Part shown: piece by piece, positions 17,788-62,621 of the stretch
How the letters are laid out: each line of letters begins with the position of its first letter
Numbering within the stretch: position 1 is the first letter of the stretch
NCBI GenBank assembly: GCA_963833225.1
Contig: CAWHXD010000008.1
Location: forward strand, 1-64,000
From: an uncultured Chloroflexia bacterium
GTDB taxonomy: Bacteria; Chloroflexota; Limnocylindria; Limnocylindrales; CSP1-4
DNA length: 64,000 nt
Direction: 5' to 3'
Made by a program: the position numbers and the translations under genes
The notes under the pieces: generated by a model
Told to the model about the DNA's origin: nothing
The model's database searches: none
The model's input: only the letters and a program-made list of their open reading frames with translations

Positions 17788-18597
17788 GTGAGCGACACGA
17801 CCGACCGCCTGGTCCCCGCCGATCCTCGCGTCGATGCGCCGTCCGCGGCTTCCCGTCTCCGGGCCTGGCTCGCGGCAGCTCCGCCGGATGGCGCGAGCCC
17901 GGCCGACCTCCGCACGGTGGAGGTCCTTGGCCTCCGGCTTCCGCTCCGCGCCACGGTGGCGGTCCTGGCCGTGTCGCTCATCCTGCTGCTCGACTATCAC
18001 GGACGGATTGACGGGTTGGTCGAGGCCGTCCTGGGGCCGTTTGGAGAGGGGACCGCCTCGGCCAAGCGCGTCCAGTCGCTGGGCCGCCTCATCCTCGAGG
18101 GCCTCGTTCCCCTGGCGCTGGTCGTGTTCGTGCTCCGGGACCGGCCCTCCCGCTATGGGCTGCGGCTCGGGGACTGGCGGGCGGGGGCCGCGGTCGCCGT
18201 TGGGGGGTGTGCGGTCATGACGCCCGTGGTCGTGGCGCTCGTCCACCTGCCGGCGTTTGCGGCCTACTACGCGCCCCAGGCGGCATCGCCGCTCGACGTT
18301 GGGCTCACCACCGCCCTGGAGGTCATCCCGGCCGAGTTCTTCTACCGCGGGTTCCTCCTGTTCGCCCTGCTTCGCGTCGCGGGCCCGATCGCCGTCGTCA
18401 TCGCCACCCTGCCATTCGCCTTCGTGCACCTCGGCAAGCCGGAGCTCGAGACCCTGAGCACGCTCGGCGGGGGGCTCCTCTACGGCTGGCTGGACTGGCG
18501 CACCGGCTCCGTGCTGTGGAGCGGGCTTGCCCATACCTGGATCCTGGGGGTCGCGGTCGTGGCCGCGGGTGCGATCGGCGGCGGCCCTGCCGGCTGA
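17788..18597 (+). CDS. CPBP family intramembrane glutamic endopeptidase
   Basis: EFFYRG, FAFVH, AHTW motifs; multi-TM. Confidence 0.88.
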   Translation: MSDTTDRLVPADPRVDAPSAASRLRAWLAAAPPDGASPADLRTVEVLGLRLPLRATVAVLAVSLILLLDYHGRIDGLVEAVLGPFGEGTASAKRVQSLGRLILEGLVPLALVVFVLRDRPSRYGLRLGDWRAGAAVAVGGCAVMTPVVVALVHLPAFAAYYAPQAASPLDVGLTTALEVIPAEFFYRGFLLFALLRVAGPIAVVIATLPFAFVHLGKPELETLSTLGGGLLYGWLDWRTGSVLWSGLAHTWILGVAVVAAGAIGGGPAG

Positions 18598-18641
18598 GCC
18601 GCGTCCGGCATCTACCGCCAGGTCGCCGTATGCTCGGCGGC

Positions 18642-19643
18642 ATGCCCCGCGATGACGCTCCCCCCGAGCTGACGGCGCTTGCCGATGCCCGTGCCGCGGC
18701 GCGCCGTGCCCGCGACTGGGCGACCGCGGATGCCCTCAAGTCGCGCATCGAGGAGGCCGGCTGGAAGGTGATCGACTCGGGCTCGTTCTACGACCTCGAG
18801 CGCGCGTCCGCGCCGGATCTCGAGACCGACGGGATCGTGCGCTACGGATCCAGCGCATCGGTCCCGTCGCGGCTCGCGGAAGCGCCGGTCGGCGTGGCCA
18901 CCGTCCTGCTCGTCGTCAGCGACGGGCCGCACGATCTTGCCCGCGCCGTCGGGGGACTCGCGGCCCATGCGCCCGACGGCACCCGCGTCATCGTGGTCGC
19001 CAACGGGGCGTCCGACGACATCGAGGCGCTGGCGGGTGCGCTGGACGCCGCGGATCCGGGGGCCCCGGGCGTGATCACCGACGTGGTTCGCACCTCTGCG
19101 CGACTGGGCTGGGCGGCGGCGCTCAACGCGGGCATCCGGCGCGCCACAGCGCCGGTCGTCGTGGTCCTCGATCCGTCGATCGAGGTGAAGGGCGACCTCG
19201 TGTCTGCCCTGGCCAGCGCGCTGGAGGACCCCACGGTCGCCGTTGCGGGCCCCTTCGGGCTCGTGTCGGAGGACCTGCGGGACTTCCACGCCGCCCCGCC
19301 GGGCTCGTTGGACGTGGACGTCATCGACGGCGTCGCCTTCGCGTTCCGCCGGGCGGACTATGTCGAACGTGGTCCGCTCGACGAGCATTTCGCGTCCAGC
19401 GAGAGTCTCGACGCATGGTGGAGCCTCGTGCTCCGCGACGTGGCCGACGATGCCGACGAGGCAACGGAATCCCGCCGGGCGGTCCAGGTCGGCTCCGGCC
19501 TCGTCGAGCGGCACCCTCGGTCGGATCCGGAAGGACCGTCGCAGCCCGATCAGGAGCGGCTCGCTCGCCGGAACCGGTACCGCCTCCTCAAGCGGTTTGC
19601 CACCCGTCGCGACCTGCTGGTGGGCAGCGGGCCCGCCGGCTGA
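18642..19643 (+). CDS. CysRS anticodon-binding-like domain fused to a GT2 (GT-A) glycosyltransferase
   Basis: N-terminus LADARAAARRARDWATADALKSRIEEAGWKVID resembles the CysRS C-terminus; then VIVVANG, LGWAAALNAGIRRA..PVVVVLD, GPLDEHF. Confidence 0.8.
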   Translation: MPRDDAPPELTALADARAAARRARDWATADALKSRIEEAGWKVIDSGSFYDLERASAPDLETDGIVRYGSSASVPSRLAEAPVGVATVLLVVSDGPHDLARAVGGLAAHAPDGTRVIVVANGASDDIEALAGALDAADPGAPGVITDVVRTSARLGWAAALNAGIRRATAPVVVVLDPSIEVKGDLVSALASALEDPTVAVAGPFGLVSEDLRDFHAAPPGSLDVDVIDGVAFAFRRADYVERGPLDEHFASSESLDAWWSLVLRDVADDADEATESRRAVQVGSGLVERHPRSDPEGPSQPDQERLARRNRYRLLKRFATRRDLLVGSGPAG

Positions 19644-19864: not shown

Positions 19865-21523
19865 GTGCGAGCCTGGACTGAGACGGACATGACCGATGCT
19901 GGTCCCGTCGTGCCGCCCTCGCGCCGGCGCCGCGTGGTCGTCGGGGCGATCGCCATCCTGGTTGCGGCTGGGCTGGTGGTCACGGCCTGGCCGGGCGCCC
20001 CGGTGTCGGTGGCCCCGACCCCCGCGGCTGCCGCGGACCCGGACTCGGTCACGATCGTGGCCGGGGAGCCGGCGTCGATCGACCCCGCCAAGCACGGCGA
20101 CCTGGGCAGCGCGTCCTACGTCAGCCAGCTGTACGAGACGCTGACCGCCGTCGGCCCCTCCCTGGGGATCCGCCCCGCGCTGGCCGAGTCGTGGACGGTC
20201 ACCGACGAAGGCCGGCTCGTCACCTTCACGCTGCGCCCCAACCTGGTGTTCAGCGACGGCTCGCCGCTCCGGGCCAGCGATGTCGTGCACTCCTGGCAGC
20301 GCCTGTTCCTGCCGGGCGATCCGTCGCCGCTCGCATCCCTCGTCGCCGACATGCGGGGCGCCCGCGAGCTGCTGACCGGGCAGAGCCGGGACGTGACGAC
20401 GCTGGGCGTCCGGGCCGAGGATGACCGGACGGTCGTCGTGGACATGGTGCGGGGTGGGGGAGACCTGCCGGCAATCGTGTCCGGGGCGCCGTTCGCCGTT
20501 GTGCCGTCCTCGGTGGGAGACGCAGAGATCATCCCGCACCCCGGGACGCTGGTCGGCAGCGGCGGCTACACGCTCGAGGGCGTCGATGCCGACGCCTTCA
20601 CGCTCAAGGCCAACCCCAACTACTGGGCCGGCAAGCCGGCGATCGGGACGGTCCGGATGCTGACGACCCTCAACGGGGGCAGCCCGGTCGACGCCTTCGT
20701 GGCCGGCGACGTGGATGTGACCGGGATCGGTTACTACGACGCGGGATGGATCGCGTATGACAAGGCCATCGGGCCGTCGCTGCGCTCGGACCCGTCCCTG
20801 TCCGTGACCTACTACGGGTTCGAGACCCGCCGGCCGCCGTTTGATGACGCCCGCGTCCGCGAGGCGTTCGCGATGGCCGTCGACTGGCGCCGGCTCGCGG
20901 CGCTTGATGAGCCCGGCTCGTCCGTGCCCGCGACGAGCCTCGTCCCGGTGGGGATCCCCGGGACCCCGGAAGGGGAGTACCTGCCCGCGTTCGACCCCGC
21001 CGGGGCTCGCGCGCTGCTCGCCGAGGCCGGCTACGCGACGGGCGCCGATCTCGGCCCGGTCTCGTTCATCGCCAATGGCGGGGGGTACGACGGCGGCGTG
21101 ATGGCCATGCTCGAAGAGAACCTTGGCGTCGACGTCCAGTACGCGGTGATGGAGTTCAACACCTACCAGGCGCGCCTCGCGACGGACCCCCCCGACATCT
21201 GGAGCCTGACCTGGGTCGCCGACTACCCGGGACCGAATGACTTCCTCGGCGTGCTGCTGGGCACTGGGTCCACCGCGAATGAGGGTGGCTGGTCCTCCCA
21301 GCCGTTTGACGATGCCATCGCCGCCGCGACATCGGCCAGTGATGCGGCAACCGCCACCGCTGCCTATGCCCGGGCGCTCGCGATCGTCCGCGACGAGGCT
21401 CCCGTGGTGCCGGTGACCTACGGAACGTCGTTCTCGCTGGTGCGCGATGGCCTGCTCGGGGCGTCGACCAGCGGCACCGGCATCCTGCGGCTGGCCGGCC
21501 TCGCCTGGGGCTCGGCGCCGTGA
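19865..21523 (+). CDS. peptide ABC transporter substrate-binding protein (family 5)
   Basis: SIDPA, LYETL, PALAESW, FSDGSPL.A.DV, PFDD.RVREAF, W.ADYP.P.DFL. Start GTG 19865 or ATG 19889. Confidence 0.92.
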   Translation: MRAWTETDMTDAGPVVPPSRRRRVVVGAIAILVAAGLVVTAWPGAPVSVAPTPAAAADPDSVTIVAGEPASIDPAKHGDLGSASYVSQLYETLTAVGPSLGIRPALAESWTVTDEGRLVTFTLRPNLVFSDGSPLRASDVVHSWQRLFLPGDPSPLASLVADMRGARELLTGQSRDVTTLGVRAEDDRTVVVDMVRGGGDLPAIVSGAPFAVVPSSVGDAEIIPHPGTLVGSGGYTLEGVDADAFTLKANPNYWAGKPAIGTVRMLTTLNGGSPVDAFVAGDVDVTGIGYYDAGWIAYDKAIGPSLRSDPSLSVTYYGFETRRPPFDDARVREAFAMAVDWRRLAALDEPGSSVPATSLVPVGIPGTPEGEYLPAFDPAGARALLAEAGYATGADLGPVSFIANGGGYDGGVMAMLEENLGVDVQYAVMEFNTYQARLATDPPDIWSLTWVADYPGPNDFLGVLLGTGSTANEGGWSSQPFDDAIAAATSASDAATATAAYARALAIVRDEAPVVPVTYGTSFSLVRDGLLGASTSGTGILRLAGLAWGSAP

Positions 21524-22836
21524 GCCACATGCTGGCGATCCGTGGCCGGGCGGGGCGCCTCGCGAGGGTCGCGGCGGCGCTCGTGGCGGCGACCGCGCTC
21601 CTGCTGCCGGCCGCCGCGCCGGCGTTCGCGGCCGGCGTCACATTCGGGCAGGCGGAGGCGGAGGTCACCTACGGCGAGGGCATCACCTTCACCATCCCGA
21701 TCACCGTCAGCGGGCCGCTCGAGCGGGTGGAGATCCGGCTTCGCTACCCGGGCAGCCTCGGACCGTTCATCGAGGAGATCGCGGTGCCGGCCGCAGGCCC
21801 GCAGACCCTGACCTACCGCCTGGACGCGACTGGCAGCGGTCACGTCGTGCCCAACACCCCGATCGTGGTGACCTGGGCCGTGCTCCCCGCGGGAGCCGAT
21901 GCGCCCGTTCTCTCCGAGCCGCAGACCGTCCTCTACGCCGACACCGACCACGACTGGCAGAGCCTCCAGGGGGACCTCGTGACGGTCCACTGGTACGCCG
22001 GCACCGAGGCATTCGCCCGCAAGGCGCTCAAGATCGGCGACGAGGCCGTCCGGCAGACCGCGGACCTGCTGGGCGTGACCGAGACGGAGCCGGTGGACTT
22101 CTTCATCTACGGAGACCAGGCGGCGTTCCGGACCGCGCTCGGACCGGGGACCCGGGAGAACGTCGGCGGGCAGGCGCACGCCGACATCCGGACCCTGTTC
22201 GCCCTGATCTCGCCGGGCGCGATCGACGACAGCTGGGTGGGGATCGTCATCCCGCATGAGCTGGTGCACCTGGTGTTCGACACGGCGGTCAGCAACCCCT
22301 ACCGCTTCCCGCCGCGCTGGGTCAACGAGGGGCTGGCGGTGTACCTCTCGGAGAGCTACGGCCCGGTGGACCGGAACCTCGTCGCGGACGCCGCGGCCAG
22401 CCGCGAGCTGCTGCCGCTCACGGCGCTGACGGGCCAGTTTCCGACCGAGCCCGACAAGACCTACCTCGCCTACGCGGAATCCGTCTCCGCCATCGATCAT
22501 CTCGTCCGGAGCTCGAGCCAGGACGCGCTGCTCACGCTGATCACGTCGTACAAGGACGGGCTCACCGACGACGAGGCCTTCGACCGAGCGCTGGGCATGG
22601 ACGTCGCGGGGTTCCAGGCGGGCTGGCTGGAGGAGCTGGGCGCCGACGTGCCGCAGCCGTACGGGCCGGTGGCCAATCCTCCAGGACCGGTGCCGCCCGG
22701 ATGGGGCGAGGCGACCGCGCCGCCGCCGGCCGCGCCGCGTGGGGACCTCGGCCCGGTCTTCGCGGCCATCGGCGGGGTGGTGCTGGTGGTGCTCGTGGCC
22801 ATGGTGCTGGCGCGGCGGCGTACGGCCCTGCAATGA
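21520..22836 (+). CDS. peptidase MA-like zinc metallohydrolase, secreted and membrane-anchored
   Basis: Signal peptide; HELVH and PRWVNEGLAVY gluzincin-like motifs; C-terminal TM. Confidence 0.88.
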   Translation: MSHMLAIRGRAGRLARVAAALVAATALLLPAAAPAFAAGVTFGQAEAEVTYGEGITFTIPITVSGPLERVEIRLRYPGSLGPFIEEIAVPAAGPQTLTYRLDATGSGHVVPNTPIVVTWAVLPAGADAPVLSEPQTVLYADTDHDWQSLQGDLVTVHWYAGTEAFARKALKIGDEAVRQTADLLGVTETEPVDFFIYGDQAAFRTALGPGTRENVGGQAHADIRTLFALISPGAIDDSWVGIVIPHELVHLVFDTAVSNPYRFPPRWVNEGLAVYLSESYGPVDRNLVADAAASRELLPLTALTGQFPTEPDKTYLAYAESVSAIDHLVRSSSQDALLTLITSYKDGLTDDEAFDRALGMDVAGFQAGWLEELGADVPQPYGPVANPPGPVPPGWGEATAPPPAAPRGDLGPVFAAIGGVVLVVLVAMVLARRRTALQ

Positions 22837-23624
22837 GTGCGCTGGTGGCGCGCGCGCGCGCCGTCCCAAGCTGGCAGCTCACGCTCGGGATCGCGCTGAT
22901 GGGCCTTGGCTTCCTCGTGGCCGCGCAGCTCGCCTCCGAGGGCCCGCGCATCCGGTACACGTCGCAGGAGCGCACGCCGCTGGTGGAGACGGCCCTGGAC
23001 CTCCAGGCCCAACAGGAGAGCCTCAAGGCGGGGATCCTGCAGCTCCGGGAGGAGATCGCCGGCTACGAATCGGCCGGCGAAGGGGGCGCTGCCGTGACCC
23101 AGGACCTCAACCGCCAGCTCGAGCAGGCGAAGATCGCCGCGGGGCTGGCCGCGATGACGGGGCCCGGGCTGGTCATCCAGCTGGAGGACTCGACCGTCCC
23201 CGTTCCCGAGGACGGCAACGAGCGCGACTACGTGGCTTCCGGCGCGGACGTGCTGGTGGTGGTGGAGGAGCTGTGGCTCGCCGGCGCGGAATCGGTCGCG
23301 GTCAACGGCGAGCGGATCGCCGCGACCACGTCGATCGTGGACATCGGCGGGTCGGTCCTGGTCAACTCGGCGTATATCGCGCCCCCGTACCAGATCGCGG
23401 CCATTGGACCGGCGGACATGTTCGACCGCCTCACATCGTCCCCGGGCTTCGTGGACTTCATCCGTGCCCGCTCGGAGACGTTCGGGATCGGCGTTGGCTA
23501 CGCGGAGCAGGCACAGGTCGACATCCCCGCCTACGCGGGCGTCGTCAACCTTCGTCACGGCATCGTCCTCCCCGACGCCTCGCCCGGGCCCGGCGGTTCG
23601 CCGTCCACGAGCGGGGCCCAGTGA
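22833..23624 (+). CDS. DUF881 family protein
   Basis: TM, coiled coil, AGL..MTGPGL.I.L.D, ELW.AGAE..AVNGERI, PPY.I.AIG. Confidence 0.9.
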   Translation: MSALVARARAVPSWQLTLGIALMGLGFLVAAQLASEGPRIRYTSQERTPLVETALDLQAQQESLKAGILQLREEIAGYESAGEGGAAVTQDLNRQLEQAKIAAGLAAMTGPGLVIQLEDSTVPVPEDGNERDYVASGADVLVVVEELWLAGAESVAVNGERIAATTSIVDIGGSVLVNSAYIAPPYQIAAIGPADMFDRLTSSPGFVDFIRARSETFGIGVGYAEQAQVDIPAYAGVVNLRHGIVLPDASPGPGGSPSTSGAQ

Positions 23625-24298
23625 TGCGCCGCCGGTCCAACATGCTCTCGTTCGCCGCGGTCCTGTTCCTGCTCGGGTTCCTGGTGGTCGTCCAGCTCCG
23701 GTACAACGCCGCGGACAATGGGTTGACCGGTCTCTCCGTCCAGGAGCTGGGCGAGCTGGTGGCCAACCTGACGACCCGCAACGACCAGCTGCGCGACGAG
23801 ATCCGGGTCCTCGAGGCGCAGCGCGCGGCGGTTGCCGGCGCGGTGGAAGGCGGCGACACGTCGGCCGTCCAGATCCGTGCCGATCTCAACCGGATCCGCG
23901 GCTGGTCCGGCGCGCTGGGCGTGGCGGGCCCCGGCGTGCGTGTCGTGATCGAAGGATCCCTGCCCGGCGACGGCGTGGAGCTCCTGCTCAACGAGCTGCG
24001 CAACGCGGGGGCCGAGGCGCTCTCGGTCGGGGAGATCAGGCTTGTGCCCGGGGTCGTCGTCACCGGACCCGCGGGCAACCTGGTCGTGGGCGGCAGCCCG
24101 CTGGCCGACCCCGTCGAGATCCGGGCGGTCGGGCAACCCGAGCCCCTGGGCGGCGCGCTGGCCCGCCCCGGTGGACCCATCGCCCAGCTGGCGGCGCGCT
24201 ACCCGGACGTCGTCGTCACCGTGAGCGTGGAGGACCGGCTCGACCTGCCGCCGACGGACCGCGACCTGGGTCCGACGCTCGGGACGCCGCGCCTCTGA
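23624..24298 (+). CDS. DUF881 family protein
   Basis: GPGVRV.I, LLNELRNAGAEA, P.EIRAVG.P..L..AL..PGG. Confidence 0.88.
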   Translation: MRRRSNMLSFAAVLFLLGFLVVVQLRYNAADNGLTGLSVQELGELVANLTTRNDQLRDEIRVLEAQRAAVAGAVEGGDTSAVQIRADLNRIRGWSGALGVAGPGVRVVIEGSLPGDGVELLLNELRNAGAEALSVGEIRLVPGVVVTGPAGNLVVGGSPLADPVEIRAVGQPEPLGGALARPGGPIAQLAARYPDVVVTVSVEDRLDLPPTDRDLGPTLGTPRL

Positions 24299-24330
24299 GC
24301 GTGTCGGCGGGCTCTGCTACTCTCGGGCCG

Positions 24331-24570
24331 ATGTCAGGCCATCCCGTCGTGGAGCTCTACCTCGGCGACCTCATCCGGCTCAGGCGTCGCCACCCCTGTG
24401 GCGGTGACACCTGGCTCGTCGATCGCCTCGGCGCCGACATCGGCCTCCGCTGCGAGACCTGCGGCCGTCACGTGCTCCTGGACCGGCCGGTGCTGGAGCG
24501 CCGGATCGCGTCGTTCGTGCGGCGCGGGGATCCCGCGATCAGCGCCGCGGTGACCCCGGTGCGCCAATGA
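24331..24570 (+). CDS. DUF951 family protein
   Basis: GD.IRLRRRHPCGG..W...RLGADIGL.C..CGR.V.L.R. Confidence 0.9.
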   Translation: MSGHPVVELYLGDLIRLRRRHPCGGDTWLVDRLGADIGLRCETCGRHVLLDRPVLERRIASFVRRGDPAISAAVTPVRQ

Positions 24571-26111
24571 TGGCGCCGCCGGCCGGGACCCTCACCGGGG
24601 AGCCCGGCCCGGACGGAGGCCCGGAGACCGCCGGGGCGTTCGAGGTCTTCCGCAATCGCCCGTTCCTGCTGCTCTGGCTCAGCCAGGTGTTCACGCAGAT
24701 CGGCGGCAACATGGTGCTGTTCGGTCTCACCGTCATCGTGCTCGAGACGACGCGCTCGAACACGGCGGTCAGCTTCCTGATCCTGACCTTCCTCGTTCCC
24801 GCTGTCCTGTTCTCGGCCGTCGCCGGCGTGTTCGTGGACCGCTTCGACCGGCGGTTGGTCCTCGTGGCGACCAACCTGATCCGCGCGGCCATGTTCGTGG
24901 TCCTGTGGTTTGCCGGCGACTTCCTGCTCATCCTGTTGCTGCTCAACGCCGCGATCTCGACCGTGACCGTGTTCTTCGCCCCCGCCGAGGCGTCGATGAT
25001 CCCGCAGCTGGTGCCGCGGCGGCAGCTGATCACGGCGAACGGCGTGTTCACGCTCACCCTCAACGCCGCGTTTGCCGTTGGCTACGCCCTGCTCGGGTCG
25101 ATCGTGGTCACCCTGGTCGGCCCGCAGGGGCTGATCCTGGTCGTTGCCGGGTTCTTCCTCGTGGCCGCGCTGTTCTGCTGGTGGCTGCCCCCGGCACCGC
25201 CGACCGCGAGGACGGCATCAGCCGCGGACGCGGAGCACCACAACCTCCTTGACTCGGACGCCGGCCGGGCGATCGGCTCGACGTTCGACCAGCTGCGCGA
25301 AGGCATCGGGTTCATCCGCGAGAACCGGGCCATCACCTGGTCGCTGGTCTACCTCGGGATTGCCGCCTCGCTGGTCGGCGTGCTCGGCGTGCTGGGGCCG
25401 GACTTCGCGATCAAGTCCCTGGGCCTCGAGGCCAAGGACTTTGCCGTGGTCGTGCTGCCCCTGGCGTTCGGCATCGTGACCGGGATCCTGTTGCTCAACT
25501 CGTTCGGGCACCTTGCGCCCCGGCGGCGGATCATCGAGGGCGGCCTGATCGCCCTGGGCATCTTCGTGTTCCTGATCGTCGGGGTGGGACCCTTGTCGCG
25601 GTTCCTGCAGTCGGCCGAGGCGGCCGCCGGCCTCGTGTCGCTGGCCGACTTCACCTCGCTGCTGGCCCTGGTGGTGTTCATCGCGCTGCTCGCCGGTGTC
25701 GCCTATGCGTTTGTCGCCATCCCCGCCCAGACGCAGCTCCAGGAGGAGATCCCCACCGACGTGCGGGGCCGGGTGTTCGGCGTGCTGAACATGCTCGTTT
25801 CCACGTCAAGCCTGGCGCCGATCGTGATCGTCGGGCCGCTGTCGGACCTCCTGGGGACCACGAACGTCCTGTACTGCGTCGCGATCGCCATCACCCTGAG
25901 CGGGGTCCTCTCGATCATCCGCCGCGGCCCGCTCAAGCCCGCCGAGGCGCGCCAGACGGCCACCGGGCCGATGACCCCTGCCGGCCTCGATCCCGTGGCG
26001 GTGGCCACCGCAGCCGAGGTGGAGGCGGGCGAGCGTCGTGCGGCGCTCAAGTCCGCCGACGAGGCGACGTCGGCGGCGATGGGACGAGGCGACCCGGCGG
26101 AGGACGAGTAG
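24567..26111 (+). CDS. MFS transporter (MFS_3/EntS-like)
   Basis: NRPFLLLWLSQVFTQ, AGVFVDRFDRR, FFAPAEASMIP, QT.LQE..P..VRGRVFG. Confidence 0.9.
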   Translation: MMAPPAGTLTGEPGPDGGPETAGAFEVFRNRPFLLLWLSQVFTQIGGNMVLFGLTVIVLETTRSNTAVSFLILTFLVPAVLFSAVAGVFVDRFDRRLVLVATNLIRAAMFVVLWFAGDFLLILLLLNAAISTVTVFFAPAEASMIPQLVPRRQLITANGVFTLTLNAAFAVGYALLGSIVVTLVGPQGLILVVAGFFLVAALFCWWLPPAPPTARTASAADAEHHNLLDSDAGRAIGSTFDQLREGIGFIRENRAITWSLVYLGIAASLVGVLGVLGPDFAIKSLGLEAKDFAVVVLPLAFGIVTGILLLNSFGHLAPRRRIIEGGLIALGIFVFLIVGVGPLSRFLQSAEAAAGLVSLADFTSLLALVVFIALLAGVAYAFVAIPAQTQLQEEIPTDVRGRVFGVLNMLVSTSSLAPIVIVGPLSDLLGTTNVLYCVAIAITLSGVLSIIRRGPLKPAEARQTATGPMTPAGLDPVAVATAAEVEAGERRAALKSADEATSAAMGRGDPAEDE

Positions 26112-61460: not shown

Positions 61461-62621
61461 GTGCCCGGCGCTTCCACCTTCGAGGTCCTCGTCCCGCCGC
61501 CCGCGGACGGGTCGACGCGCGCCCGCCTGGGCCGCCTGCGGCTGCCGCACGGGATCGTCGACACGCCGCAGTTCATGCCCGTCGGGACCAACGCGACGGT
61601 CAAGGCGCTCCATCCGGACGAGGTGTCGGCCGCGGGCGCCTCGATCCTCCTCGCCAACACCTACCACCTCTACCTTCGGCCCGGCCACGAGCGGATCCGG
61701 GACCTCGGTGGCCTGCACGCGTTCATGGGCTGGAGCGGACCGATCCTGACGGACTCCGGCGGCTACCAGGTGGTGAGCCTGGGGGACCTGCGGGTGATCG
61801 ACGACGGGGGCGTGACCTTCAAGAGCCATCTCGACGGGACCACCCACCGGTTCACGCCGGAGCACTCGATCGCGGTCCAGGAGGCGCTTGGGCCGGACAT
61901 CGCGGTGGCGTTCGACCAGCCCGTGTTCCCGAGCTCGCCGCAGGCGGTGGTCGAGGATGCCATGCGCCGCACCCACCACTGGGCGGAGCGCTCGCTGGCC
62001 GCGCACACGCGGACGGACCAGGCCCTGTTCGGGATCGTCCAGGGAGGCCTCGATCCGGCGCTGCGCGAGGCGTCGGCGCGGTTCATCACCTCGCTGCCGT
62101 TCGACGGCATCAACATCGGCGGACTGGCGGGCGACGAGACACCCGACGAGCGGAACGCGACCCTCGACGAAACCATGCCCTTCCTCGACGACGACCCGCG
62201 GCCGCGCTATCTCATGGGTCTCGGGTCGCCGCTGGACCTGCTCGAGGCCGTGCACCGGGGCGTGGACCTGTTCAATTCGGTGCTGCCGGCGCGCGTCGCG
62301 CGGAACGGCCAGCTGTGGATCCCGGGCGCGCGTCTGAACCTGCGCAACACGCAGTACATGGACGATCCGCGACCGGTCCAGGAGGGCTGCCCATGCCCGC
62401 TGTGCACGCGGTTCTCGAGGGCGTATCTGAGCCACCTGTTCCGGGCCAGGGAGATGCTCGCGTACCGGCTGGCGACTTGTCACAACCTGACCTTCACCCT
62501 AGACTTCATGGCCAGGATCCGCGCTGCGCTGCGCTCTGGAACCTTCCCCGTCGAGATGGCCGAATTGCGCTCCCGCGCCGTTCGCATGAGTGGCGGTGAA
62601 GTGGGCGCAAAGTCGGCGTGA
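61461..62621 (+). CDS. tgt: tRNA-guanine transglycosylase, variant active site
   Basis: [39 protein letters not shown], CxCxxC...H zinc site. Confidence 0.93.

Follow-up and report, generated by a model that had tools for sequence, protein, structure and literature searches.

Why should the anticodon-reading domain of a cysteinyl-tRNA synthetase (CysRS) stand at the head of a glycosyltransferase-like protein? The gene that raises this question lies at 18642-19643 (+) of the window, by which we mean the whole 64,000-nucleotide stretch analysed here (positions 1 to 64,000 of contig CAWHXD010000008.1, assembly GCA_963833225.1, from an uncultured Chloroflexia bacterium). Its 333 codons encode a 333-aa protein, P0001, in which an N-terminal anticodon-binding domain (ABD) of the CysRS type is joined to a core of glycosyltransferase family 2 (GT2). 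We found that P0001 belongs to a large ABD-GT2 family of Chloroflexota and that CysRS is the one recurrent partner of this family. Both observations are new, and the fusion and adjacency of the two partners point to unexplored chemistry centred on cysteine tRNA. The literature searched, with subscription journals outside its coverage, contained no description of the ABD-GT2 architecture or of CysRS-GT2 fusions; this agrees with the statement of the first-pass annotation, made from the letters alone, that no characterised protein has this architecture, though the architecture is common in databases.

The anticodon-binding domain and the GT2 core

The first-pass annotation had recognised the C-terminal pattern of CysRS in the first ~50 residues, and Pfam, structure-profile and reverse hidden Markov model (HMM) searches bore this out. 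The ABD, a homologue of the Pfam domain CysS_C (PF23493), occupies residues 4-45 (18651..18776, +). The hmmscan match of PF23493 to residues 4-43 of P0001 (E 9.3e-5, 22.9 bits) was just under the cut-off of 23, and a six-frame scan of the genome scored the ABD at 25.4 bits, above it. The 63 N-terminal residues alone matched residues 411-449 of E. coli CysRS (1li5/1u0b, E 6.8e-4), and a 40-sequence family profile matched residues 415-454 of Coxiella CysRS (3tqo, E 2.8e-6). In the reverse direction, an HMM built from the N-termini of the family was run against 26 canonical CysRS loci and recovered the C-terminus of every one at E <=8.3e-5, one of these loci (L109) coming from the unpublished genome G038. 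Because the profile matches run in both directions, the likeness reflects homology and not chance, and by these matches the N-terminal module is genuinely homologous to the anticodon-binding domain at the C-terminal end of CysRS. The pattern R..AR...D(W/F)..AD..(R/K)..(I/L)...G....D was present in all four aligned groups, and a precomputed PF23493 label was carried by 14 of the 120 listed homologues (manual count).

To place the conserved residues, we compared the ABD with the C-terminal domain of bacterial CysRS (E. coli 403-461, 1U0B, PF23493), with which it shares R-x3-R-x3-D-W-x2-A-D-x2-R...G...D and the G34-contact residues described in two sources. In the first, G34 is described as hydrogen-bonded to Arg427 and Asp436 of E. 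coli CysRS and stacked on Trp432, with Arg423 taking part through a water network (PMC12684709); in the second, Arg427, Trp432, Asp436 and Arg439 are given as the residues that were mutated to change anticodon specificity (PMC13449415). The residues R423, R427, W432, D436 and R439 so described align with R17, R21, W26, D30 and K33 of P0001. Unlike the synthetase domain, the ABD of P0001 is N-terminal, detached from the synthetase and its helical bundle and joined to GT2, and it has a family-specific P7 and an A-G-W motif. We then counted conservation in three groups, namely 120 close relatives, 97 diverse cluster representatives and 112 CysRS-GT2 fusions (329 sequences in all), which are given below in this order unless the group is named. 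R17 was kept in 119/120, 95/97 and 107/112 sequences, R21 in 120/120, 95/97 and 112/112, and D30 in 120/120, 95/97 and 112/112; position 26 was aromatic in all but two gapped rows, and position 33 was Arg or Lys in 94/120, 89/97 and 112/112. The first-pass annotation had proposed the conservation of anticodon-contact residues across homologues as a check, and these residues, as far as the two sources name them, proved near-invariant. Of the 22 positions that were at least 85% identical in all three groups, seven fall in the ~45-residue ABD; on this alignment no other part of the protein is as constrained, and the ABD is under strong selection.

The ABD is followed by a linker (residues 46-85, 18777..18896, +) with the motif G-S-S-x-S-V-P-S-R-L, whose P75 was kept in 120/120, 92/97 and 104/112 sequences; the VPS(R/Q) form of this motif was also seen in the CysRS-GT2 fusions. 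The next part, residues 86-290 (18897..19511, +), is a variant GT2 core of the GT-A type. PF00535 matched residues 96-213 with 41.7 bits (E 1.5e-10, cut-off 23.3), and the family profile matched the GT2 structures 6yv7 (E 1.5e-13), 6p61 (1.6e-10) and 5mlz (1.3e-7). Two sites of this core depart from conventional GT2 enzymes. At the (V/I)DNGS site, P0001 has VVANG (residues 118-122, 18993..19007, +), so that the acidic residue of (D/E)-N-G-S is replaced by A120, followed by N121. At the DxD metal-binding site it has LDPSIEVKGD (residues 176-185, 19167..19196, +), a form of the family signature D-(T/P)-S-x-E-x-x-G-D, with L-D-P-S where the family consensus is D-T-S. In the profile alignment, VVANG and LDPS align with the nucleotide-binding Asp and the DAD of 6yv7 and 5mlz. 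These two structures, PcManGT and Pyrococcus DPMS, are the best solved GT-A relatives and share A-L-N-x-x-L-R-x-A-x-G and L-x-D-P-x-V with P0001, but they keep DAD and the nucleotide-binding Asp and are membrane-associated, whereas P0001 has D-P-S and A-N and is soluble.

The altered DxD site is itself conserved. D177 was kept in 112/120 close relatives, 112/112 fusions and 44/97 representatives, S179 in 102/120 close relatives and 112/112 fusions, E181 in 118/120 and 111/112, and D185 in 117/120 and 93/112, while the T of D-T-S was found in 112/112 fusions. Further core motifs, S-x-D211-L-R, A-F-R236-R237, G244-P-L-D247-E and L-D257-x-W-W-S261-L-x-L-R265, lie within 19266..19439 (+), and D211, A-F-R-R, G203, G206, G244, D247 and S261 were near-invariant over the 329 sequences. 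D257, present in 120/120, 45/97 and 112/112 sequences, stands at what may be the ED/TED-type catalytic-base site, placed there by its motif and not by structure. From this alignment we read the GT2 domain as a conserved variant and not as simple decay. A basic C-terminal tail (residues 291-333, 19512..19640, +; net charge +5, pI 11.5) ends the protein, with R310, Y313, R314, F319 and L325 conserved. Every 19-residue window of P0001 scored at or below 1.6 on the Kyte-Doolittle scale and no membrane helix was predicted, so that P0001 is soluble by prediction; together with the PF00535 match and the motif positions, this agrees with the soluble GT2 protein carrying VVANG and LDPS that had been proposed at first.

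In the profile scan P0001 gave no PF01406 or TIGR00435 match, and it is therefore not a synthetase, the class I catalytic domain with HIGH and KMSKS being absent. An alternative ATG lies four codons upstream of 18642, at 18630, and the identical database entry P0002 (337 aa) starts there. The G+C content of the window is ~70%.

CysRS as a partner of the ABD-GT2 family

Among 8000 candidates scored, 1428 were homologues of P0001 at E<=0.001, and 143 representatives of 50%-identity clusters matched at E <=1e-30, mostly aligned from about residue 5 to the end. The stand-alone form was found in 390 species genomes of the genome collection. The 80 related loci from named genomes were all from Chloroflexota metagenome-assembled genomes, mostly labelled Limnocylindrales or 'uncultured Chloroflexia', and the 20 distant homologues carrying names that we looked up were likewise all from Chloroflexota; in look-alike Atlas clusters, the few labelled members were Actinomycetota. 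The family profile divided 401 Chloroflexota genomes bimodally into 104 with a full-length match (E <=2.3e-40) and others with generic GT2 matches only. Several of these counts were read manually from long listings (the homologue list and the 401-genome profile listing), and the genome tallies for GT2, for the S51 hydrolase and for the tRNA-guanine transglycosylase (TGT) discussed below include the unpublished genomes G344, G227, G145, G038, G272 and G173, of which G344 is one of the 104; apart from these tallies and L109, nothing stated here depends on them. ABD-GT2 proteins thus form a large Chloroflexota family.

Two copies were present in 11 of the 401 genomes, and in each of these one copy lay within a frame of ~800 codons. 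These long frames are complete CysRS-GT2 fusions, in which the ABD+GT2 unit forms the C-terminal half, and they were read in at least 10 genome families (f4, f5, f9, f24, f28, f51, f55, f66, f70 and f78), f4 belonging to the class of the window genome. In the fusion P0278, a CysRS part (TIGR00435 436.5 bits, cut-off 340; PF01406 E 2.5e-98) is followed by the ABD, the VPS(R/Q) linker and GT2, with a match to PF00535 as well. The GT2 part of P0278 matched 508 proteins of 441-1404 aa, and 119 of the 120 listed among them hold the CysRS catalytic part together with GT2. P0001 is collinear over its full length with the C-terminal half of such fusions (for example UniRef A0A455T818 of Thermogemmatispora argillosa) and shares with them the motifs D-T-S-x-E-x-x-G-D, S/T-x-D-L-R and A-F-R-R, and this collinearity and these signature motifs place it in the ABD-GT2 family. 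It differs from the fusions in having neither the synthetase catalytic domain nor the DNGS acid, and in having W-W-S-L-x-L-R where they have (Y/H)-(F/Y)-S-F-F-F-K.

The catalytic part of the fusions carried the expected synthetase motifs. Among 105 fusions with a near-full catalytic domain, HIGH was present in all 105 and KMSKS in 104, and CGPT(V/P)Y, GWH(I/L)EC and HH(E/D)(N/D)E, which we take to supply Zn ligands, were each present in 103-105. The fused CysRS is, going by its motifs, apparently catalytically intact. Since all five fusion genomes checked keep a separate canonical CysRS, the fused copy is a dedicated extra paralogue; in each of the same number of fusion genomes, BLAST with the tRNA-Cys of the window genome, a query of limited sensitivity, gave one full-length tRNA-Cys match and no dedicated extra tRNA-Cys. 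For three of three GT2-associated CysRS examined, NF011108 scored higher than TIGR00435, whereas for the canonical CysRS of the window genome the order was reversed. In a midpoint-rooted tree, 25 sampled Ktedonobacteria-type fusions (of the 112 aligned) formed one clade with support 1.0 inside the stand-alone diversity. Fusions are named 'cysteine--tRNA ligase' in Ktedonobacteraceae and Thermogemmatispora, and JGI often labels ABD-GT2 homologues 'cysteinyl-tRNA synthetase', so that recognition of a CysRS-linked ABD-GT2 family would correct a widespread mis-annotation. Two other domain combinations were observed among longer database forms: in P0279 (597 aa) a CPBP protease domain is joined to the GT2 protein, perhaps because two neighbouring genes were called as one, and P0280 (720 aa) has an An_peroxidase domain (PF03098) after ABD+GT2.

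Where the two proteins are separate, they are often encoded side by side. A CysRS gene lies directly downstream on the opposite strand, tail-to-tail, in 45 of the 80 Limnocylindrales loci; in L073 only 15 bp separate the stop codons, and the neighbour (L073:8973-10553, -) scored 367.6 bits on TIGR00435. In G221 the neighbour (G221:C20:31922-32941) is a second CysRS, the canonical one being elsewhere. A different arrangement was found in G029, where a full cysS begins inside the end of a 293-aa ABD-GT2 gene (L139:6056-6937), the two overlapping head-to-tail on the same strand, within a same-strand run from a GT4 gene through ABD-GT2 to cysS (L139:4644-8325). An all-against-all comparison of 20 loci across families revealed no other shared neighbour, and CysRS is the one recurrent partner of the ABD-GT2 family. 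As a side observation, in many Limnocylindrales (loci L010-L089) the tail-to-tail gene is a second, divergent CysRS, which the window genome does not have at this place.

A CysRS-derived protein with a link to sugars is already known in MshC, the cysteine:GlcN-Ins ligase (TIGR03447). In MshC the anticodon domain is lost while the catalytic domain persists, and P0001 shows the reverse; on TIGR03447, whose cut-off is 485 bits, the fusion P0278 reached only 208. Truncated MshC-like copies do coexist with the fusions: G111, G165, G287, G273 and G225 have three CysRS-like genes each, one canonical, one fused to GT2 and one truncated and MshC-like, the truncated copies being ~410-420 aa long and covering profile positions 1-370 to 1-398. 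Family f3 had a canonical and a truncated copy in 15 of 15 genomes. The truncated CysRS lies 6-26 kb from the ABD-GT2 gene in f3, and this loose linkage was not used, the intervening genes of G009 (acyl-CoA dehydrogenase, FTR1, dienelactone hydrolase and rhomboid) being unrelated.

Candidate roles of the ABD-GT2 protein

Strong selection on the ABD, together with the fusions and adjacencies that tie the family to CysRS, makes a role directed to tRNA or dependent on it the leading reading, and we lean towards a GT2-type enzyme that would be addressed to tRNA-Cys and coupled to CysRS, leaving its acceptor unchosen. This is the part of the original proposal that stood, on the homology and selection of the ABD and on the CysRS fusion and adjacency; its choice of queuosine as the acceptor and of TGT as the supplier did not. 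In such an enzyme, the N-terminal ABD would dock the protein on the GCA anticodon loop of tRNA-Cys, and the GT-A domain would then carry out a glycosyl-type transfer either on tRNA-Cys itself or on cysteine loaded by CysRS. The short linker between ABD and GT2 favours an action near the anticodon loop. An action on the 3'-esterified cysteine would be favoured by the fusions, which retain an apparently active synthetase and have an associated serine hydrolase.

Known systems offer partial models for both sites. LysX of mycobacteria is a LysRS fused to an MprF-type lysyl-transferase and is kept beside the housekeeping synthetase. As a dedicated aminoacyl-tRNA synthetase (aaRS) paralogue fused to a transferase, it offers the closest model of a transferase supplied by its own aaRS, and by analogy with such fusions a transfer to tRNA-bound cysteine would have a precedent; it differs in using another aaRS and another transferase fold and in being a membrane protein, and we know of no stand-alone form of LysX with an anticodon domain. 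GluQRS/YadB, QTGAL and QTMAN are aaRS-derived parts or glycosyltransferase enzymes that act on the anticodon loop of specific tRNAs. GluQRS is a catalytic-domain paralogue that, unlike P0001, has no anticodon domain, whereas QTGAL and QTMAN, compared here by description only, act on Q34 of tRNAs with GUN anticodons and have no aaRS module.

The same domain is found on a second type of enzyme. At G000:C7:112182-113528 (-) (locus L002:1438-2787), the window genome encodes a 449-aa protein with a Peptidase_S51/cyanophycinase-like N-terminus and a C-terminal CysRS anticodon region, which is the third CysS_C match of this genome (NF011108 positions 368-487, E 4.6e-8). S51-like relatives were found in 113 of the 401 Chloroflexota genomes, and the ABD of their ~350-aa forms scored 52-65 bits with the HMM of the GT2-family N-termini, as against 18-43 bits for canonical CysRS. 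Ser135, the putative nucleophile, and His180 were invariant in 15 aligned members, and presumably correspond to the S51 motif positions. Of 31 fusion loci checked, six (in f4, f28 and f45) have an S51 gene of 245-257 aa without the ABD immediately after the CysRS-GT2 fusion. The ABD-tagged S51 protein may, by its domain content, be a tRNA-Cys-directed hydrolase. Combining these elements, a pathway may be drawn in which the second CysRS loads cysteine, the ABD-GT2 protein glycosylates it or joins it to a sugar, and the S51 hydrolase releases the product, but we hold this full scheme to be rather unlikely. If tRNA-Cys does serve as such a scaffold, Chloroflexota would have a tRNA-dependent route to glycosyl-cysteine or to a new low-molecular-weight thiol, and the CysRS anticodon domain would be a portable tRNA-Cys address tag on unrelated enzymes.

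Several observations weigh against an enzyme addressed to tRNA-Cys. The ABD is only the ~45-residue alpha/beta part of the anticodon apparatus of CysRS, without the helical bundle, and the conservation of its residues could be partly structural. P0001 is acidic (pI 4.73), with a net charge of -18 on the GT2 core. The second Asp of DxD is lost family-wide, and the DNGS acid site is Ala in 113/120 close relatives but Asp or Glu in 112/112 fusions; because of these losses, the GT2 domain may be inactive, or may differ from conventional NDP-sugar enzymes. The tail-to-tail placement with CysRS is not an operon and may reflect shared descent within one order, since the kin are not independent and the 45 adjacencies may trace to few events. 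In the window no CysRS gene is fused or adjacent to the gene of P0001, which SBP_bac_5 directly follows; the cysS of the window genome lies ~730 kb away at G000:C8:750215-751594, and in this genome, which is 86% complete, no second CysRS was found and ARAGORN called one tRNA-Cys(GCA) among 54 tRNAs. The S51 and GT2 families are also not co-distributed in the 401-genome tallies (S51 against GT2: f3 0/16 and 12/16; f24 1/28 and 28/28; f10 23/24 and no orthologue), and for this reason their link is suggestive and not firm.

Another explanation is that P0001 is a conventional soluble glycosyltransferase whose acceptor is not RNA: it might be a glycan of the envelope, the precursor of a glycolipid, or a small molecule derived from cysteine, for example a low-molecular-weight thiol. 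The ABD would then be a remnant, would serve in dimerisation or docking, or would connect the enzyme with cysteine metabolism instead of tRNA. Among GT2 enzymes, the nearest to the core are polyprenyl-phosphate or membrane-associated ones (6yv7, 5mlz), which also have basic amphipathic C-terminal tails like that of P0001; it is acidic, and envelope-type neighbours (CPBP, SBP_bac_5, Peptidase_MA and two DUF881 genes) are present in 57-73 of the 80 related loci. The GT4 gene directly upstream in G029 and the truncated MshC-like CysRS copies of the fusion genomes agree with this explanation too. However, the envelope-gene synteny was found in none of the seven stand-alone loci of the other families f3, f23 and f24 (L136-L142), no transmembrane segment was predicted, and the fused CysRS keeps its anticodon domain as well as its catalytic motifs, unlike MshC-type ligases. 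A remnant would be expected to drift, whereas conservation is highest in the ABD, where the residues described as contacting G34 are retained. We regard a conventional glycosyltransferase as possible but doubtful.

The losses in the active site would also fit a pseudo-glycosyltransferase, which would bind tRNA-Cys or CysRS together with a nucleotide-sugar-like ligand and act as a regulator, sensor or chaperone of cysteine decoding. Besides the DNGS acid lost in the clade of P0001 and the second Asp of DxD lost throughout, the low retention of D177 and D257 among the diverse representatives and the stronger conservation of the ABD than of the GT2 core agree with a non-catalytic role. Against it, D211, F-R-R, D247, G203 and G206 stay near-invariant in all three groups, and D-T-S-x-E-x-x-G-D varies little or not at all among the fusions and close relatives, a pattern that looks more like an altered active site than like decay; the synthetase to which the unit is fused moreover appears catalytically intact by its motifs. 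A non-catalytic protein is in our view quite unlikely.

The first-pass annotation had pointed to a queuine-type TGT in the window as the source of an acceptor, and a TGT gene is indeed present at 61515-62546 (+), 42 kb from the ABD-GT2 gene; its product has GGLAGDE, with Gly where the TGT of Z. mobilis has Val233. The best PDB matches of this TGT, 4hqv and 4gcx, also have Gly at the position aligned with Val233, and we take them to be V233G-type entries; the window TGT may be of the queuine-salvaging type. The co-occurrence with tgt that had been suggested as a check gave no specific link to ABD-GT2. TGT was found in 333 of the 401 genomes, including families without an ABD-GT2 orthologue (f10 24/24, f14 25/25, f20 9/9 and f2 4/4), and was not found in f4 (0/2), where a fused relative is present (G325). 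TGT acts on tRNAs with GUN anticodons, and tRNA-Cys is not known to be a TGT substrate. A queuosine acceptor is not supported by the retained residues, which, going by the description of E. coli CysRS, read G34 of the GCA anticodon of tRNA-Cys. That P0001 is a bacterial counterpart of the animal queuosine glycosyltransferases and places a hexose on a Q34 that the window TGT provides is thus very improbable, for although animal QTGAL is a GT2 enzyme as well and the window TGT has the fitting Gly, the targeting module is of the CysRS type with its G34/GCA-reading residues (as named in the two sources) kept, fusion and adjacency link the family to CysRS but to no gene of the Q pathway, the TGT is distant and shows no specific co-occurrence or other link that would make P0001 QTGAL-like, and no QTGAL-like match was present among the 47 PDB matches of the family profile.

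Returning to the enzyme addressed to tRNA-Cys, its interest lies in which part of the synthetase is reused. Domains of aaRS have been reused outside translation in MshC, LysX, GluQRS and the cyclodipeptide synthases, and such cases have repeatedly revealed new biochemistry. Here it is the anticodon-reading module, and not the catalytic domain, that is reused on two unrelated enzyme types, the GT2 protein and the S51 hydrolase, and hundreds of proteins join the GT2 type to a dedicated second CysRS that is apparently intact. Should the module have kept its ability to read the GCA anticodon, the family would include the first bacterial glycosyltransferase addressed to a specific tRNA, and a new modification of tRNA-Cys or a new use of Cys-tRNA-Cys would follow. 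Cultured Ktedonobacteria such as Thermogemmatispora carry the fusion, and these ideas are thus directly testable.

Surrounding genes

The gene of P0001 follows a CPBP/Rce1-like membrane protease gene (17788..18597, +), which ends 44 bp upstream and has the same position in 23 of the 80 related loci. Downstream, genes for SBP_bac_5, Peptidase_MA, DUF881, a second DUF881, DUF951 and MFS proteins form a string at 19865..26111 (+), and the frequency given above for the envelope-type neighbours (57-73 of 80 loci) holds for this string. The string resembles an envelope or division cluster. As functional context for P0001 it was rejected as lineage synteny, being absent from the seven stand-alone loci of other families. 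Scans of 17.0-21.0 kb for promoters, terminators and Rfam families gave no matches. Further upstream, 3.7 kb from the gene of P0001, 13086-14900 (+) encodes an ABC-F type protein with two ABC_tran domains and ABC_tran_Xtn, a translation-factor-like ATPase. Among the tRNAs of the window genome, ARAGORN also called a tRNA-SeC(TCA) on contig C7 and two tRNA-Ile(TAT), whose anticodon is unusual for bacteria.

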